DNA of 34,976 nt, taken from IMG/VR virus record IMGVR_UViG_2548876698_000017. One strand, written 5' to 3'. The stretch is from a virus (Duplodnaviria; Heunggongvirae; Uroviricota; Caudoviricetes). Below, piece after piece: positions 6,010 through 34,976 of this stretch (its first letter is position 1; each line of letters opens with the position of its first letter). The notes beneath the pieces are model-generated. The model did no database searches and was not told the origin of the DNA. It saw nothing but the letters and a program-made list of their open reading frames with translations. The position numbers and the translations under genes are program-made.

Positions 6010-6090
6010 AACTTGTTGCCTCGGCCTGTTATCGTTGAGGTAATAATTATGCGTATCTGGTTTGATGTCAATAGATATGAGTTAAAAAAA

Positions 6091-6105
6091 TTACCCATTA
6101 GGTAA
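6091..6105. promoter_or_regulatory. Operator-like palindrome TTACCCATTAGGTAA (perfect TTACC-N5-GGTAA)
   Basis: Between the repressor terminator and the leftward recombination operon, about 80 bp upstream of the first minus-strand ORF (pL-like position). Confidence 0.6.
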
Positions 6106-6112
6106 TCGAATA

Positions 6113-6141
6113 GGCAATAAAAAAGCCGCCTTCTGGCGGCT
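6113..6141 (-). terminator. Intrinsic terminator downstream of the repressor gene
   Basis: Hairpin AGCCGCC-TTCT-GGCGGCT followed on the minus strand by TTTTTATT; 22 bp past the repressor stop. Confidence 0.6.
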
Positions 6142-6162
6142 TACTTACTGAAAAATATGATT

Positions 6163-6747
6163 TTATTGTTTGTTTTTTTCGTTCTGGTTGATGACAAATT
6201 CAATGTAACTTTCGATCTTTGCTTTCTCGGTTTCGGGTAACAATGCGTAGCGCGAGCGATCATAGTTGATGGTCGCAGGGTCGTGCGGGTGAATCAGTAA
6301 TTCATAGCCGTGACGCCCGAATGCGGATGCAACATTCTCCAGGGTGGAAATGGAAACGCTGACCTCATTGTTTAACAGGCGGCTGATTGTCACTTGGGCG
6401 ACGCCGGATGCGCGGTGTAGTTTTCCCTGCGTTGAAAGGTCGCGGCTTTCGCTCATCCAGCGTTCCAGGTTGTGAGCCGCCAGCTGACCTATATCGCTCG
6501 GGCCGACAGGCTGAAAACCCTCCTGAGAAAGCGAGCGATCAATATCAAGCCAGTTACGGGGTTTATTGGCGGCAGCTTCAATTTTTCGTGCAACCTGGTC
6601 GCCGATAACCTTCTTGCCAAGAGCCCAGCGGTTTACCAGATTTGCCTGAGTTCCAAGTTTTTCTGCCATCCGCGTCTGAACACCATTGAATTCACGGTCG
6701 ATCAAGTCGTTGAGATTTTGCCTGCGGACGTCCTGGATACTTTTCAT
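6163..6747 (-). CDS. Putative prophage immunity repressor with two HTH regions and no LexA-like peptidase domain
   Basis: 194-aa ORF divergent from a Cro-like gene with three operator palindromes between them. HTH-like segments MAEKLGTQANLVNRWALGKK and ASGVAQVTISRLLNNEVSVSISTLENVASAF; no S24 peptidase motif seen. Confidence 0.6.
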   Translation of the reverse strand: MKSIQDVRRQNLNDLIDREFNGVQTRMAEKLGTQANLVNRWALGKKVIGDQVARKIEAAANKPRNWLDIDRSLSQEGFQPVGPSDIGQLAAHNLERWMSESRDLSTQGKLHRASGVAQVTISRLLNNEVSVSISTLENVASAFGRHGYELLIHPHDPATINYDRSRYALLPETEKAKIESYIEFVINQNEKNKQ

Positions 6748-6802
6748 TTTCTGGAAAATCGCCTCATATATGAATCAGTAGATGATTCAATTTAAAGCAA
6801 TA

Positions 6803-6817
6803 TTACCCAACAGGTAA
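6803..6817. promoter_or_regulatory. Operator-like palindrome TTACCCAACAGGTAA (perfect)
   Basis: First of three sites in the 154-bp repressor/cro intergenic region. Confidence 0.65.
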
Positions 6818-6819
6818 AT

Positions 6820-6834
6820 GCACCTCATAGGTAA
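6820..6834. promoter_or_regulatory. Operator-like site GCACCTCATAGGTAA (degenerate left half)
   Basis: Second site in the repressor/cro intergenic region, 3 bp from the first. Confidence 0.5.
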
Positions 6835-6850
6835 CTATCCTTGATTTTTG

Positions 6851-6865
6851 TTACCTTATGGGTGA
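6851..6865. promoter_or_regulatory. Operator-like site TTACCTTATGGGTGA (one mismatch in right half)
   Basis: Third site, about 40 bp upstream of the cro-like start; overlaps a candidate -35/-10 (TTGATT ... GAATAT). Confidence 0.55.
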
Positions 6866-6901
6866 ATATTTATTATCTGAAATAAATATCAGGCAATAGC
6901 T

Positions 6902-7132
6902 ATGAGCGATAACGGACATTTCGATTTCAAAAAGCACTGGCTTGCACTTACTCCGGATGAGCGTGAAGCCTTCGCACAGGAAGCCGGAACAACGAGTCAC
7001 TATATCCAGACTCACTTAACAGGTAAGCGCAAAATGCCAGGTAAGGTATTGATGAATGGGCTTTTTAAAGCCTGTAAAACAAGACAATGGCTGCGCTCAA
7101 AAGCAGAACTGGCATACTTCTTCTACTCATGA
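6902..7132 (+). CDS. Cro/YdaS-like small HTH regulator
   Basis: 76-aa ORF divergent from the repressor; HTH-like EAFAQEAGTTSHYIQTHLTGKR; followed by an intrinsic terminator at 7155-7178. Confidence 0.5.
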   Translation: MSDNGHFDFKKHWLALTPDEREAFAQEAGTTSHYIQTHLTGKRKMPGKVLMNGLFKACKTRQWLRSKAELAYFFYS

Positions 7133-7154
7133 TATCCAGCTACAACCCTCTGTA

Positions 7155-7178
7155 GACCGCCACCCGGCGGTCTTTTCA
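7155..7178 (+). terminator. Intrinsic terminator after the cro-like gene
   Basis: GACCGCC-ACCC-GGCGGTC followed by TTTTCA. Confidence 0.6.
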
Positions 7179-7187
7179 TATCTATTC

Positions 7188-7202
7188 GTACCTCAAAGGT
7201 AA
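7188..7202. promoter_or_regulatory. Operator-like site GTACCTCAAAGGTAA (one mismatch)
   Basis: Immediately after the cro terminator, upstream of the small zinc-binding gene and O-like gene. Confidence 0.45.
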
Positions 7203-7282
7203 TAAAAAACCAAATCTGGTTGATCTTTTTTTTGTGTCAGCACAAAATGACCGTAATCCCAATACTAATAACAGGGCTTACC

Positions 7283-16285: not shown

Positions 16286-16449
16286 CGAACTGGAAGCAAT
16301 GAGTTATGCCTTCCGTGGCTGTACGGGTTTACAGCATGAAGTCATCGCAATGGCGTCCTGCTGTAAAAAGGGCGGTGATAGTCCTTCAAGGGAAACTATC
16401 ACCGCCAAGCACCTGGAACTTCTGGCATCACGGTCCTTAGGCGTGATTC

Positions 16450-16526: not shown

Positions 16527-16848
16527 AACGCTGAGAGCACTTAGCCTGTTAAGGCGCCACACTTTGTCGCGGCTCCATAAATGCTCTCATCGTTGTACCC
16601 TCGTCTCTTCCGAGGCGTCACACCGAATCGCCGGGATGGTGAATCCCCGTGCGCGGAATAAAACCGCTCGACTTGCACATTCCGGCTACCTGGTTCGTTT
16701 GCCCGAGCAAGGGAGGGTGCCCCTTAAACGTATCCAGACCGCTATCGGCGCATGTGCCATACGCCGTACTGCTCAAAATAAAAGCTCACTCCACCTGTTC
16801 AATTTAACGACAAGCCAGTCAGGTTAATAACCGGAATGAACCCTTTGA

Positions 16849-16863
16849 TTACCTGAAAGGTAA
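16849..16863. promoter_or_regulatory. Operator-like palindrome TTACCTGAAAGGTAA (perfect)
   Basis: Noncoding region between the tRNA and the 6.7-like/portal genes, about 90 bp upstream of the first structural ORF. Confidence 0.5.
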
Positions 16864-16953
16864 TAATTTGTGCGTTAAATGTCAACTATCTACGATAAAT
16901 AAATCATATGTGGTTAAATTGGTAATAATTTAATTGCGTACGGAGTCATTGAT

Positions 16954-30457: not shown

Positions 30458-32932
30458 ATGAGACAGGAATGTATACAAGCGGTCCAGCAGGCGGCGCAGC
30501 GCACGTTAACGGCGCGAGAAATACAGAACATTGAAGACCGCATTTATCGAAATATGCGCTCCATTGCTCGTGATGACCCGATGTCGTGGCGACAACTTTC
30601 CGAATCAGAACGGTTGTATCGTGCAGCACAATTGGCATCTGAAGAATTACAGCGAGAAGCGGCATTAAAGAAACGTCGTGTGGCCCTCACTATAGCCGCA
30701 CGTCAGAGATTGGATAAATTTATCAATAGCTATCAAGGGGCTGATGGGAAACTTGGCGCTCTTAACCGTACTATTGCTTTTAATGCAGACGGTAAATCGA
30801 ATTTCCTCTCTGTTGAATCCAGAACAAAAGCCACTCGTGATTATGCATTGAGTCAATTGCAGGAGGCATTTGAAGCAGTTGATCCTCGCTTTTTTGGCCT
30901 GTTTGAAGATGAAGCGGGCGTGCGTGACCTGGTATATGAAATGCGAGGGCAAAATACTGGCAATGCTAAAGCAAGAAAAGGTGCTAAGGCGTGGAGAGAA
31001 GTGACAGATCTACTGCGCCGCCGGTTTAATGATGCTGGTGGGGACATTGGCTATCTCGAAAACTGGGGGATCCCTCAACATCATTCTATGGAAAAGGTTG
31101 GGGCGGTATCAAAAGATAAATGGGTTAGCGATGTTATAGGTAAGCTGGATCGCAAATATTATACCCGAGCCGATGGACAACTGATGAACGATGCCGAGTT
31201 GTCTGCATTTCTTGGAGAGGCTTATAACACGATCGCTACTGGTGGGCTGAATAAGCTTACTGATACCGGAATGCGAATTTCCGGCGTACGTGCTAACCGT
31301 GGTAATGCATCACGACAGATACATTTCAAAGATGCAGATTCCTATCTGCAATATCAGCAACTTTATGGCGATCGCTCTCTATGGGAAATCATGGTCGGTC
31401 ACCTGGAAGGTATCAGTAAAGATATTGCGCTGGTGGAAACATATGGCCCAAACCCCGATCATGTTTTCCGCTCTCTTCTTGATCAGGTTAAGGCAGAAAC
31501 GGCAACAGCTAACCCGAGTAAAACCGGTAGCGTCGAGCGTCTGGCGAACAAAACAGAGAACTTGTACAACTTTATTTCCGGAAAAACACAGCCTGTAGCG
31601 AATCCGCACATCGCGCGATGGTCTGACAATATCCGCAACTGGCTGGTTGCCAGCAGACTCGGATCCGCGTTGCTGTCATCGTTCTCTGATCTTGGAACCA
31701 TGTATCTGTCTGCGAAGGTTACCAACCTTCCAATGAACCAGTTATTTCGCAACCAGCTTGAAGCTATGGACCCAACGAACCGTACTGAGCTTGCGCGGGC
31801 GCGCCGCGCTGGCCTGGCGATGGAATCTCTACTTGGCAGCGTTAACCGCTGGGCGATGGATAATATGGGGCCGTCTGTGTCTCGTTGGGCGGCAACGGCG
31901 GTAATGCGTGCCAGTGGGCTTACAGCATGGTCAGGTGCGCACAAGCGCGCCTATGGCGTAACCATGATGGGAAGCCTGGGAGAAGTAGTGTCACGGACAC
32001 CAGACCTTCGTAGCCTCGATGACTCTGATTTTCGTATCCTGAAAAGTAAAGGGATTACTGACACAGACTGGAGCGTATGGAAGCTGGCGCAACAGGAGGA
32101 CTGGGGGAACGGTAATAATACGATGCTGACACCGGAAAGCATTATGCGTATCCCTGATTCAGCAGTTAAACATCTTGGTGAGCCTGAACGCGTGAAATTT
32201 GAGGCAATGCGTAAACTGCTCGGTGCCGTAACTGAAGAAGTTGATATGGCTGTTATTACACCGGGAGCACGTGAGCAACTGATAACCGGTTCTGGTATTC
32301 AGCGTGGAACATGGAAAGGTGAATTAACGAGAAGTGTTTTCCTGTTTAAATCGTTCCCTATCTCGGTTGTTATGCGTCACTGGTCACGCGCTATGGGTAT
32401 GCCGTCTGCTGGTGGGCGTGCGGCATATATTGCGACGTTTATTGCCAGTACGACCATTCTTGGCGCTTTGTCGCAGCAACTTAACGACCTTGCGTCTGGT
32501 CGTAATCCTCGAGAGATGACAGGAGAAGATGCCGCAAAATTCTGGCTTGGTGCTCTACTGAAAGGTGGTGGTCTTGGCCTTTACGGTGACTTTTTATTGT
32601 CAGATCACACTAGGTACGGAAGCGGCGCGCTGGCGTCGATGCTTGGCCCGGTAGCTGGTCTGGTTGATGACGTAGTGAAGATTGCTCAGGGCATACCGTT
32701 AAATGCTGTGGAAGGGAAGAGTGAGCAGACTGGTGGTGATCTGGTGAAGCTGGGGAAAGGTTTGATGCCTGGTGCGAATCTCTGGTACTTGAAGGCGGCT
32801 CTCGATCACATGATCTTTAACCAGATGCAGGAGTATTTTTCACCAGGCTATTTGCGTAAAATGGAGCAACGTTCGAAGAAAGAGTTTAACCAGACATACT
32901 GGTGGCGACCTCAGGATGTCACTCCGCAATAA
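30458..32932 (+). CDS. Internal virion/ejection protein (large)
   Basis: 824-aa ORF; last of three consecutive large ORFs before the tailspike; assignment by synteny. Confidence 0.5.
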   Translation: MRQECIQAVQQAAQRTLTAREIQNIEDRIYRNMRSIARDDPMSWRQLSESERLYRAAQLASEELQREAALKKRRVALTIAARQRLDKFINSYQGADGKLGALNRTIAFNADGKSNFLSVESRTKATRDYALSQLQEAFEAVDPRFFGLFEDEAGVRDLVYEMRGQNTGNAKARKGAKAWREVTDLLRRRFNDAGGDIGYLENWGIPQHHSMEKVGAVSKDKWVSDVIGKLDRKYYTRADGQLMNDAELSAFLGEAYNTIATGGLNKLTDTGMRISGVRANRGNASRQIHFKDADSYLQYQQLYGDRSLWEIMVGHLEGISKDIALVETYGPNPDHVFRSLLDQVKAETATANPSKTGSVERLANKTENLYNFISGKTQPVANPHIARWSDNIRNWLVASRLGSALLSSFSDLGTMYLSAKVTNLPMNQLFRNQLEAMDPTNRTELARARRAGLAMESLLGSVNRWAMDNMGPSVSRWAATAVMRASGLTAWSGAHKRAYGVTMMGSLGEVVSRTPDLRSLDDSDFRILKSKGITDTDWSVWKLAQQEDWGNGNNTMLTPESIMRIPDSAVKHLGEPERVKFEAMRKLLGAVTEEVDMAVITPGAREQLITGSGIQRGTWKGELTRSVFLFKSFPISVVMRHWSRAMGMPSAGGRAAYIATFIASTTILGALSQQLNDLASGRNPREMTGEDAAKFWLGALLKGGGLGLYGDFLLSDHTRYGSGALASMLGPVAGLVDDVVKIAQGIPLNAVEGKSEQTGGDLVKLGKGLMPGANLWYLKAALDHMIFNQMQEYFSPGYLRKMEQRSKKEFNQTYWWRPQDVTPQ

Positions 32933-32941
32933 GGAAGTGTT

Positions 32942-33115
32942 GTGTTTTTAATTATTTTGAGTGTGATAATTTCTGGTGGATTGTTATTTATTGACCGCTA
33001 CAAATATTTTCTTAACCCTCAGACTCAAGCTATTTGCTGGTTCATCTTTGTTGTGCAGGGAGTAGTTCTTGTTGCAAGCCTTATTGAGGGGAGGCCTCTT
33101 ATTTTTACTGGGTAA
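32942..33115 (+). CDS. Possible 57-aa hydrophobic ORF, not in the supplied ORF track
   Basis: GTG at 32942 preceded by AAGGAAG; predicted product VFLIILSVIISGGLLFIDRYKYFLNPQTQAICWFIFVVQGVVLVASLIEG... has two hydrophobic segments. Short and GTG-initiated, so uncertain. Confidence 0.25.
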   Translation: MFLIILSVIISGGLLFIDRYKYFLNPQTQAICWFIFVVQGVVLVASLIEGRPLIFTG

Positions 33116-33127
33116 ATAGGTGACTAC

Positions 33128-33424
33128 ATGCAAGCTATAGGATTCATTGTTTATATCGTCGTTGGTCTTTTTCAGTTGGCAGCAATTATGGCTGGGCTTG
33201 AATCATGGTGGGGATTGCACTGGATAATTGCAGCCCCCATTGCTTTCATCGTGAGCTATATTCCATTTGTTGGAGCGATTGTTGGTATGGTTGGCGCTGT
33301 GGATGTATGGCGGTGGGAGTGGTGGCAGGCTGGCCTTCTCTTCTTTGGTGGGATCATCTTTGCTATTGTCTGCGGTGGAATGTCATCATTTTTCGAATGG
33401 CTATCATTCAGAAAAGGGACGTGA
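33128..33424 (+). CDS. Small integral membrane protein with about three hydrophobic segments (holin-like or exclusion-type moron; function unknown)
   Basis: 98-aa ORF (MQAIGFIVYIVVGLFQLAAIMAGL...WIIAAPIAFIVSYIPFVGAIVGMVGAV...LLFFGGIIFAIVCGG); lies between ejection-protein genes and the tailspike; no adjacent endolysin. Confidence 0.5.
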   Translation: MQAIGFIVYIVVGLFQLAAIMAGLESWWGLHWIIAAPIAFIVSYIPFVGAIVGMVGAVDVWRWEWWQAGLLFFGGIIFAIVCGGMSSFFEWLSFRKGT

Positions 33425-33455
33425 CATGTCACAGGCCGCTTTCGCGGCCTTTTCT

Positions 33456-33713
33456 TTATGTGGTTTGTTTTCGTAATTGTTCGGCACAATAGTCGAGATG
33501 TGTTTGCAGATCCTGCATAGACATCTGTGAGCTGGTGACGTAGTTAATCAGTGCAGTCAGTTCGGCAAGTGGGCCATCGACATTAAATCCATCCTTATCG
33601 AGATCCCGGAGTAATTTCATCAAGTGCGATCCCTCCACCAGTGACCTGACGCCTCCCGGCGTGTGAATCCTTTCGGTAAATCCGTCTTCCAGTGGATAGT
33701 GATACTGCTGCAT
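33456..33713 (-). CDS. LexA-box-associated small protein (candidate SOS-induced antirepressor or other SOS moron)
   Basis: Listed ORF 33456..33731 starts at TTG; I prefer ATG at 33713 (MQQYHYPLEDG...) with GGAGAAG RBS. A near-consensus LexA box lies 22-37 bp upstream of that ATG. Confidence 0.55.
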   Translation of the reverse strand: MQQYHYPLEDGFTERIHTPGGVRSLVEGSHLMKLLRDLDKDGFNVDGPLAELTALINYVTSSQMSMQDLQTHLDYCAEQLRKQTT

Positions 33714-33732
33714 CTTATCTTCTCCATGCAAT

Positions 33733-33752
33733 AACTGTATAAATATACAGTA
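33733..33752. promoter_or_regulatory. LexA (SOS) box AACTGTATAAATATACAGTA
   Basis: CTGT-N8-ACAG with AT-rich spacer, close to the consensus TACTGTATATATATACAGTA; 22-37 bp upstream of the preferred ATG of the 33456..33713 minus-strand ORF. Confidence 0.8.
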
Positions 33753-33789
33753 TCAAATAATTTGTTTGCTATCCAGCACGTTTTGCGAA

Positions 33790-33804
33790 TCACCTGAAAG
33801 GTAA
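33790..33804. promoter_or_regulatory. Operator-like site TCACCTGAAAGGTAA (one mismatch; ACCTGAAAGGTAATA is shared with the 16849 site)
   Basis: Between the LexA-box gene (minus) and the tailspike gene (plus). Confidence 0.45.
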
Positions 33805-33908
33805 TATCTGTTCGTATTTATGGGTTATATATCCATATGTGGTTTTTCAGGTAATAGAATAACCGGATATGCGGCGCAACGGGTGCTGCGACTATCTGGA
33901 GATTTAAC

Positions 33909-34976
33909 ATGACGGTCTCAACCGAAGTTGACCACAACGAATACACCGGTAACGGTGTTACAACGACATTCCCTTATACCTTCAGGATTTTTAAGAAGTC
34001 TGATCTGGTAGTCCAGGTTGTAGACCTGAACGATAACATCACTGTTCTGACGCTAGATACTGACTACACAGTAACCGGCGCAGGTGGGTATGTAGGTGGT
34101 AATGTAATACTGGCAACAGCTCTTGCTAATGGTTACCAGATTTCCATATCACGTGAATTGCCGGTTACGCAGGAAACGGATCTCCGTAACCAGGGTAAGT
34201 TCTTTGCTGAGGTGCATGAGGATGCGCTTGATAAGTTGACAATGTTGATTCAGCAGGTTCGTAGTTGGTTTAGCCTGGCGCTACGTAAGCCGTCATTTGC
34301 TGCTAACTATTACGACGCAATGGACAACTATATTCGTAATCTTCGTGCCCCATCCAGGCCGAAAGACGCAGCAACGAAAGATTATGTTGATATTCTTTCT
34401 GGTGCCAGCCTAAGCAGAAGCTTGAGAGTACCTGAATCGTTTATAAATGAGTTACCTGATGCGGATGGGAGAAAGAATAAAACACTGAGTTTTGATAATT
34501 CTGGATCACCGCTTCTTCTTGATCCTGAAAGTAGTGGGTTATGGGGATATTCCCTTATTGATTCGTTTCAGGATGGTGCTTCAATAACAACTAGATTTCA
34601 GGCACTTCACTGGAAACGTCCTGATGGAAATGGCGAGTACTACCGTTGGGATGGATCTTTACCAAAAGATGTTCCTGAGAATTCAACCCCTGAATCAACA
34701 GGTGGGGTTTCCCTTGGTGCCTGGGTATCTGTAGGGGATGCATCGTTGCGGAGCGACCTGATTAGTCAAGAGACAGATAAAGGCTCCTCAATAGTTACAT
34801 ATACCCCTAAATTTAATGATGCCGTCTCGATGTCGGTATATGAAAAACTTTCTGTAGATTTGGTGACACTTTCAGACTACGGATTTAAAGTTGGCAACAC
34901 CGGTTCTCAGAACAAAGCGGCGTTTCAGAAGGCTATTGATGATGCTACGTTGCCAACTGAGATTGTTATACCAGAG
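33909..34976 (+). CDS. Tailspike protein, 3'-truncated by window end
   Basis: ATG at 33909 with GGAG RBS; open to the last base (356 codons, hence absent from the ORF track). N-terminus MTVSTEVDHNEYTGNGVTTTFPYTFRIFKKSDLVVQVVDLNDN... is consistent with a podovirus tailspike head-binding adaptor domain; assignment by pattern and by position after the ejection proteins. Confidence 0.8.
   Translation, partial: MTVSTEVDHNEYTGNGVTTTFPYTFRIFKKSDLVVQVVDLNDNITVLTLDTDYTVTGAGGYVGGNVILATALANGYQISISRELPVTQETDLRNQGKFFAEVHEDALDKLTMLIQQVRSWFSLALRKPSFAANYYDAMDNYIRNLRAPSRPKDAATKDYVDILSGASLSRSLRVPESFINELPDADGRKNKTLSFDNSGSPLLLDPESSGLWGYSLIDSFQDGASITTRFQALHWKRPDGNGEYYRWDGSLPKDVPENSTPESTGGVSLGAWVSVGDASLRSDLISQETDKGSSIVTYTPKFNDAVSMSVYEKLSVDLVTLSDYGFKVGNTGSQNKAAFQKAIDDATLPTEIVIPE

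Follow-up and report, generated by a model that had tools for sequence, protein, structure and literature searches.

A probable LexA-controlled antirepressor switch of the SPC32H type in a phiV10-like Uetakevirus prophage of Escherichia coli

Introduction

How can a prophage respond to DNA damage if its immunity repressor lacks the means to cleave itself? This question is raised by a stretch of viral DNA of 34,976 nucleotides (IMG/VR record IMGVR_UViG_2548876698_000017, Caudoviricetes), referred to in its entirety as the window. It encodes a 194-aa immunity repressor and, far from it, a small minus-strand ORF preceded by what looks like a LexA box. A first-pass annotation, made from the letters and a list of ORFs, had taken this ORF for a candidate SOS-triggered antirepressor and had placed its promoter under the control of both host and phage. 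Here we describe what comparison with related phages and prophages says about the ORF, its control region, its presumed target and the operator-like site that lies close by.

Results

A prophage of the phiV10/epsilon15 type

Judged by its relatives, the window is a phiV10/epsilon15-like podovirus prophage of the genus Uetakevirus. Its first gene encodes an integrase (1-1251, phrog_1), and its end falls within the tailspike gene. Over positions 33100-34000 it is 97-99% identical to the Escherichia phages TL-2011b, phiV10 and YDC107_2, and about 77-79% identical to the Salmonella phages epsilon15, SPN1S, SPC32H and SPC32N, while the 471 bases around the small ORF, named ant below, are 100% identical to prophages in the chromosomes of E. 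coli O26 and other STEC. The ant region was found in 531 of 5426 complete E. coli genomes (~10%), STEC strains of O26, O103 and O157 included, and in all E. coli matches among the matches listed the RefSeq label of the gene is ‘hypothetical protein’. The window and SPC32H have a common gene order, which runs from rep and a cro-like gene through replication, terminase and head genes to an 824-aa structural protein. The late end is arranged identically in the window, SPC32H, epsilon15 and phiV10: the 824-aa protein is followed by a small membrane protein, then by minus-strand ant and the plus-strand tailspike gene. In the window, this end holds the following features.

30458-32932, plus strand: gene of the 824-aa structural protein (phrog_684), in the last rightward virion structural gene cluster
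33128-33424, plus strand: gene of a 98-aa hydrophobic membrane protein (phrog_3075, function unknown), between the structural genes and ant
33433-33450: G+C-rich hairpin in the gap where the 98-aa gene and ant converge, resembling a terminator on the plus strand
33456-33713, minus strand: ant, 85-aa antirepressor gene, orthologue of SPC32H Ant, phiV10 p24 and epsilon15 gp19
33909-34976, plus strand, cut by the window end: tailspike or tail fibre gene (phrog_6518 tail fibre, E=1.6e-163), syntenic with SPC32H tsp

The 98-aa protein has a weak holin-like Pfam match that stays below threshold. Its gene is unannotated at this place in SPC32H and phiV10, in which only a 46-aa membrane protein follows the 824-aa gene; this shorter protein may match the window ORF 32942-33115. 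The full region with the 98-aa gene is also present in phage YDC107_2. Three further ORFs (33205-33492 and 33267-33476 on the plus strand, 33620-33793 on the minus strand) share sequence with real genes in another reading frame and were set aside, and an Rfam scan of 33000-34100 returned matches at chance level only (Trp leader, snoRNA; E about 0.2).

The minus-strand ORF is the antirepressor gene ant

As described in the first-pass annotation, the 85-aa ORF is present on the minus strand, antisense to the late region and between the last rightward structural gene cluster and the tailspike gene. It starts at an ATG; the program-made ORF list runs on to a TTG at 33731, giving 91 aa. The protein is 88% identical to SPC32H Ant over 84 residues, and its PDB match is a single chain, chain E of 5D50, ‘Anti-repressor protein’ (E=1.3e-47). 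The SPC32H homologue is annotated ‘ant’ in GenBank KC911856, and its structure was solved in 2016. The 88% match to a protein with a solved structure identifies the ORF, by homology, as ant of a phiV10-type Uetakevirus prophage and as the E. coli counterpart of SPC32H Ant. The earlier statement that its sequence matches no family was therefore wrong, since the ORF belongs to phrog_450 (function unknown; E=1.4e-47) as well.

Identity to phiV10 p24 and epsilon15 gp19 is 96.5% and 85%, respectively, and both are annotated ‘hypothetical protein’. Pfam and NCBIfam contain no model that covers Ant. A match to the Pfam family DUF724, seen in a scan at E up to 1, scored 17.6 bits against a cut-off of 38.4 bits and was rejected as noise. 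At the DNA level, ant and its SPC32H counterpart are 80% identical with a dN/dS of 0.06, which marks ant as a coding gene under strong purifying selection.

A near-consensus LexA box in front of ant

The region upstream of ant contains three elements that bear on its expression.

33722-33725, minus strand: Shine-Dalgarno sequence GGAG, read from the sequence, 8 nt upstream of the ant ATG
33733-33752: LexA (SOS) box AACTGTATAAATATACAGTA, with its core CTGT-N8-ACAG at 33735-33750
33747-33775, minus strand: candidate ant promoter by manual reading, with -35 TGGATA (33770-33775), a 17-nt spacer and -10 TACTGT (33747-33752)

The near-consensus box previously noted 22-37 bp upstream of the ATG, the distance spanned by the CTGT-N8-ACAG core, stands up to scrutiny. 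Compared with the E. coli LexA consensus TACTGTATATATATACAGTA, the site AACTGTATAAATATACAGTA has 2 mismatches (18 of 20 positions agree) and it is the sole match with up to 3 mismatches in the 35-kb window, where 0.00 are expected and none of 100 shuffles produced one. The CTGT-N8-ACAG core does occur elsewhere in the window, at 16319 and 20861, with spacers that are G+C-rich and not LexA-box-like. In SPC32H the box is likewise the sole match in the phage sequence, with 3 mismatches to the consensus.

Conservation of the site was followed in two sets of relatives. In an alignment of the ant-tailspike spacer of ten Uetakevirus genomes, the half-sites are kept in eight, and the box is found at the same place in all members from E. 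coli, Salmonella and Enterobacter; in SPC32N, by contrast, CTGT bears a G-to-T change, and the two Klebsiella phages have ACAT for ACAG. A survey of 80 close IMG/VR relatives, 79 of which have an identifiable ant start, showed CTGT and ACAG to be intact in 76 of those 79 loci, and in 76 of 76 when only complete loci are counted, with variable spacer bases. As for the other three, one stops within the box at a contig end (L034), one stops within the box at adapter sequence (L082), and the third (L040) has unrelated sequence where the distal half-site would be. In L082 (IMGVR_UViG_3300045988_013119), the transposase adapter AGATGTGTATAAGAGACAG adjoins the truncated LexA box, an assembly artefact in the public record.

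SPC32N is nearly identical to SPC32H: over 3.4 kb, the two differ at two positions, the G-to-T change in the CTGT of the box and one base of the tailspike gene. The latter is a C-to-T change in tailspike codon 5 (ACT to ATT; L002/L003 position 1978). Kim & Ryu (J Virol 2013) reportedly found the two phages to be two nucleotides apart genome-wide, and the LexA-box change to result in constitutive Ant and an effectively lytic phage.

The Klebsiella-type Ant loci (L094-L173) mostly have ATATGTATATATATACAGTA as their box, with the half-site ATGT for CTGT, and the box core is imperfect in 68 of 78 such loci. In a few of them, and in L040 of the E. coli set, that half is swapped for unrelated sequence with GACCCATA. 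Judging by these sequences, some Ant family members may be under weaker LexA control or have lost it.

The candidate -10 hexamer TACTGT falls inside the LexA box, and CTGGA together with the 17-nt spacing is kept across the alignment, although by manual reading the match is weak. A sigma-70 consensus scan of 33380-33950 found no minus-strand promoter near the LexA box, and because the scan made no call here, we infer the hexamers from their reading by eye and refer to them as candidates throughout. At the ribosome-binding site, CTCCATGCA is kept in the E. coli, Salmonella and Enterobacter sequences of the ten-genome alignment, and its core CTCC is invariant in all ten. At the other end of the gene, epsilon15 and phiV10 have a terminator annotated at the place equivalent to the hairpin 33433-33450. 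This hairpin has no T-run on the minus strand, which leaves termination of ant at this point uncertain.

The repressor lacks a peptidase domain

The presumed target of Ant is encoded far away from ant.

6163-6747, minus strand: rep, gene of the 194-aa immunity repressor, with two HTH regions; predicted Ant target

That this repressor has no LexA-like peptidase domain had been proposed before, and Pfam bears it out: Rep matches HTH-type families only, with neither an S24 nor a LexA-like peptidase domain among the matches. Rep is 100% identical to phiV10 p40 and matches chain A of PDB 5D50, ‘Repressor’, over nearly its full length (E=4e-42). With chain A matched by Rep and chain E by Ant, counterparts of both chains of the crystallised Rep-Ant complex are encoded in the window.

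The two partners differ in how well they are conserved, as Ant is 88% and Rep 41% identical to its SPC32H counterpart. The value for Rep comes from a global alignment, in which the N-terminal domain reaches 53% and the C-terminal domain 38% (BLASTP gives 42%). The best-conserved stretch of the C-terminal part reads YD...YA.LP..EK.KI.S.I.FV..QN. Given 42% identity for Rep against 88% for Ant, the binding of Ant to the Rep of the window is put forward here by homology.

The operator-like palindrome probably belongs to the tailspike promoter

Upstream of the LexA box lies a palindrome that resembles sites of the immunity region, and beyond it a second element.

6028-7203: immunity-region operators, with palindromes at 6028 and 6090 (left of rep), 6802 (in the gap between rep and the cro-like gene) and 7187
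33789-33805: operator-type palindrome ATCACCTGAAAGGTAAT (imperfect), a member of the ATTACC-N5-GGTAAT family
33832-33860, plus strand: candidate tailspike (late) promoter element of putative function, TCCATA, 17 nt, TAGAAT; contains CATATGTGGTT-N5-GGTAATA

With up to 2 mismatches allowed, ATTACC-N5-GGTAAT has 11 copies in the window, compared with 1.09 expected, and none of 100 shuffles reached 11. In SPC32H there are 18 copies compared with 1.12 expected, and these are clustered alike. The palindromes at 6028, 6090, 6802, 7187, 9133, 9195, 13688, 13706, 16848 and 33789 stand ahead of almost every rightward transcription unit, and further operator half-sites are found at 6830 and 6851. The operator motif is the same in the window and in SPC32H, though their repressors are only 42% identical.

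Could the palindrome at 33789-33805 be a Rep operator on the ant promoter, so that ant is repressed by LexA and Rep together, as the first-pass annotation suggested? The site is indeed a member of the operator family that clusters around rep, and the candidate -35 of ant follows it at a distance of only some 14 bp. Its equivalent in epsilon15, between gp19 and the tailspike gene, is one of the sites labelled protein_bind ‘repressor’ in GenBank, with an adjacent IHF site. However, the palindrome does not overlap the candidate core promoter of ant, and 28 nt downstream of it begins CATATGTGGTT-N5-GGTAATA. The same pair of elements is found at 16848 and 16905 (16848-16927), ahead of the head/portal operon. 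The composite, defined as ATTACC-N5-GGTAAT followed 28-40 nt further on by CATATnnGGTT-N5-GGTAATA, has exactly two copies each in the window, SPC32H (locus L011, 3174/3231 and 20012/20057), epsilon15 and phiV10, one before the head/portal operon and one before the tailspike gene. Moreover, since such sites precede nearly every rightward unit in epsilon15 and SPC32H, they point to control of the tailspike instead. We therefore regard joint repression of ant by LexA and Rep as unlikely. The composite looks like a repressor-controlled late promoter module, and because it recurs at the head operon we assign the palindrome to the rightward tailspike promoter, which it more likely serves than the ant promoter. 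As such, the operator-like site that had been pointed out is a genuine member of its family, while the dual control of ant built upon it is unsupported.

Larger antirepressors with an Ant-like C-terminal part

Several relatives carry a second antirepressor gene, just downstream of ant and on the same strand.

L006, 479-1183: Tyrion gp20 (Enterobacter phage)
L009, 460-1149: larger antirepressor of a Klebsiella prophage
L005, 604-1188: phiV10 p23

These BRO-N antirepressors (phrog_1760; Tyrion gp20 and the ‘anti repressor protein’ of Klebsiella ST11-OXA245phi3.2) are about 230 aa long and have an N-terminal BRO-N-type domain, and Ant in its full length matches their C-terminal ~80 residues at 38% identity. 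Conversely, the Ant of the window covers only positions 177-225 of the 232 positions of the phrog_1760 profile, without the N-terminal domain. A gene for a BRO-N-type antirepressor is absent from the window, and phiV10 p23 is truncated within its Ant-like C-terminal domain.

Discussion

In this study, we find that the window very probably encodes an Ant/Rep switch of the SPC32H type, in which a LexA-controlled Ant acts on a non-cleavable Rep. This is supported by the homology of both partners to the pair in 5D50, by synteny, by a LexA box that is both statistically significant and conserved, by the purifying selection on ant and by a Rep that is free of a peptidase domain. The proposal that the ORF encodes a small antirepressor, repressed by LexA and remote from the immunity region, thus gains support at the level of sequence, from the 88% identity to SPC32H Ant, the homology of Rep, and the conserved gene order and box. 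In a lysogen, host LexA would sit on the SOS box over the start region of the ant promoter and keep ant silent. Upon DNA damage, active RecA would lead to self-cleavage of LexA and thereby to transcription of ant. Ant would then bind Rep, which has no self-cleaving domain, and split the DNA-binding Rep tetramer into dimers, so that Rep is freed from the ATTACC-N5-GGTAAT operators, the lytic genes are switched on and the prophage is induced.

For the window prophage itself, LexA binding, the binding of Ant to Rep and the need for ant in induction are what we infer from these comparisons. Among the papers covered, none reported experiments on the E. coli/phiV10 version. For Salmonella prophages, a passage in PMC7380047 that cites Kim & Ryu 2013 states that the antirepressor is made after self-cleavage of LexA. 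A passage in PMC9638917 describes the Rep of SPC32H as binding DNA as a tetramer, which is broken when tetrameric Ant binds two Rep dimers. Furthermore, E. coli prophages of the phiV10 species have shown 21- to 47-fold induction by a DNA-damaging microcin (bioRxiv 10.64898/2026.05.26.727859, 2026 preprint), which fits SOS control in the E. coli lineage.

By sequence, the window is a member of the SPC32H type in the features that follow, while the overlap of the LexA box with the ant core promoter is a candidate reading. As in SPC32H, the antirepressor is a small protein (~86 aa in this type, here with 88% identity), the repressor is homologous, peptidase-free and equipped with two HTH regions, the spacing of LexA box and ant start codon is unchanged, ant runs antisense between the last structural genes and the tailspike, and the operator is again ATTACC-N5-GGTAAT. 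Unlike SPC32H, the window has E. coli as its host and carries another allele of Rep (42% identity), its LexA box is nearer to the consensus (2 mismatches versus 3), and a 98-aa membrane-protein gene is located between the structural genes and ant. The Ant/Rep system of SPC32H is reportedly the subject of work by Kim & Ryu in 2013 (J Virol) and Kim et al. in 2016 (PNAS), with the structures PDB 5D50 and 5D4Z, and Kim & Ryu are said to have found SPC32H Ant structurally distinct from the Gifsy antirepressors. Function and structure of this system are already established for a close relative, and the window holds no new biology beyond it.

The logic of a LexA-controlled antirepressor set against an uncleaved repressor is shared with other prophages. 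GfoA, GftA and GfhA of Gifsy-1, -2 and -3 and FsoA of Fels-1 are small LexA-controlled antirepressors encoded outside the immunity region, and the repressors of these prophages are uncleaved (Lemire et al. 2011, PMC3121763). The Gifsy arrangement is set apart by position: there the LexA box lies by a dinI homologue, 1.3 kb downstream of the replication genes (PMC3121763), whereas that of the window lies by the tailspike gene. No DinI/Tum similarity was seen in Ant, either in a Pfam scan at E up to 1 or with NCBIfam, which gave nothing. Tum is about 146 aa long, with a DinI-like part. What Ant has in common with the Tum proteins of coliphage 186 and Fels-2 is that they too are LexA-repressed antirepressors that act on a non-cleavable repressor (cited in PMC7380047).

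The location next to a podovirus tailspike gene brings to mind P22, which likewise has an antirepressor gene near its tailspike gene. In the immI region of P22 (mnt, arc, ant), ant lies just upstream of the tailspike gene, and its product, which is about 300 aa long and under Mnt control, binds the repressor. Unlike this protein, the Ant of the window would be controlled via a LexA box instead of Mnt/Arc, and Pfam gave no matches to ANT or P22_AR domains in it. Furthermore, an ant mutant of P22 stays SOS-inducible (PMC7380047).

How, then, is the asymmetry between the two partners to be read? One reading is that Ant is expressed but inactive on its own, diverged Rep, being either a relic or active only on other prophages, with phiV10-type prophages induced via another factor such as a BRO-N antirepressor. 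The C-terminal domain of Rep, at only 38% identity to SPC32H compared with 88% for Ant, would agree with this, as would the second, larger antirepressor that phiV10, Tyrion and the Klebsiella relatives carry downstream of ant, although the window has none. A relic would however not be expected to show a dN/dS of 0.06, and ant, the LexA box and rep co-occur throughout the genus. The Ant-like C-terminal domain of the larger antirepressors suggests that they have the same target, and in phiV10 the larger gene is truncated, yet phiV10-type prophages are inducible. On balance, we consider an Ant without effect on its own Rep to be quite improbable. That the box is a random palindrome in an A+T-rich intergenic region and the ORF no gene at all can be dismissed almost with certainty, as none of 100 shuffles gave a site so near the consensus, site and ORF are kept across genera, the dN/dS points to selection on the protein, and the structure of a homologue has been solved.

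With the SPC32H-type switch as the preferred reading, two further ideas may be raised tentatively and together. Across the Uetakeviruses of E. coli and Salmonella, Ant is 85-97% identical and the repressors only about 41% (38% in the C-terminal domain), from which it is conceivable, though on the doubtful side, that Ant is a nearly universal inducer within the genus, so that a single SOS-made Ant could inactivate repressors that differ in immunity type and induce the prophages of one cell together. Along with this, the ~80-aa Ant fold might serve again in the larger BRO-N antirepressors, as the C-terminal part with which they target the repressor. If true, such cross-induction would resemble the co-induction brought about by the Gifsy antirepressors.

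The chief value of these findings lies in annotation, as they name the likely SOS trigger of a prophage type whose ant region occurs in ~10% of complete E. coli genomes. The reassignment of the palindrome upstream of ant to a tailspike promoter module is also of use here. Naming the gene Ant would explain why these prophages respond to DNA-damaging antibiotics and bacteriocins despite a repressor that is non-cleavable.
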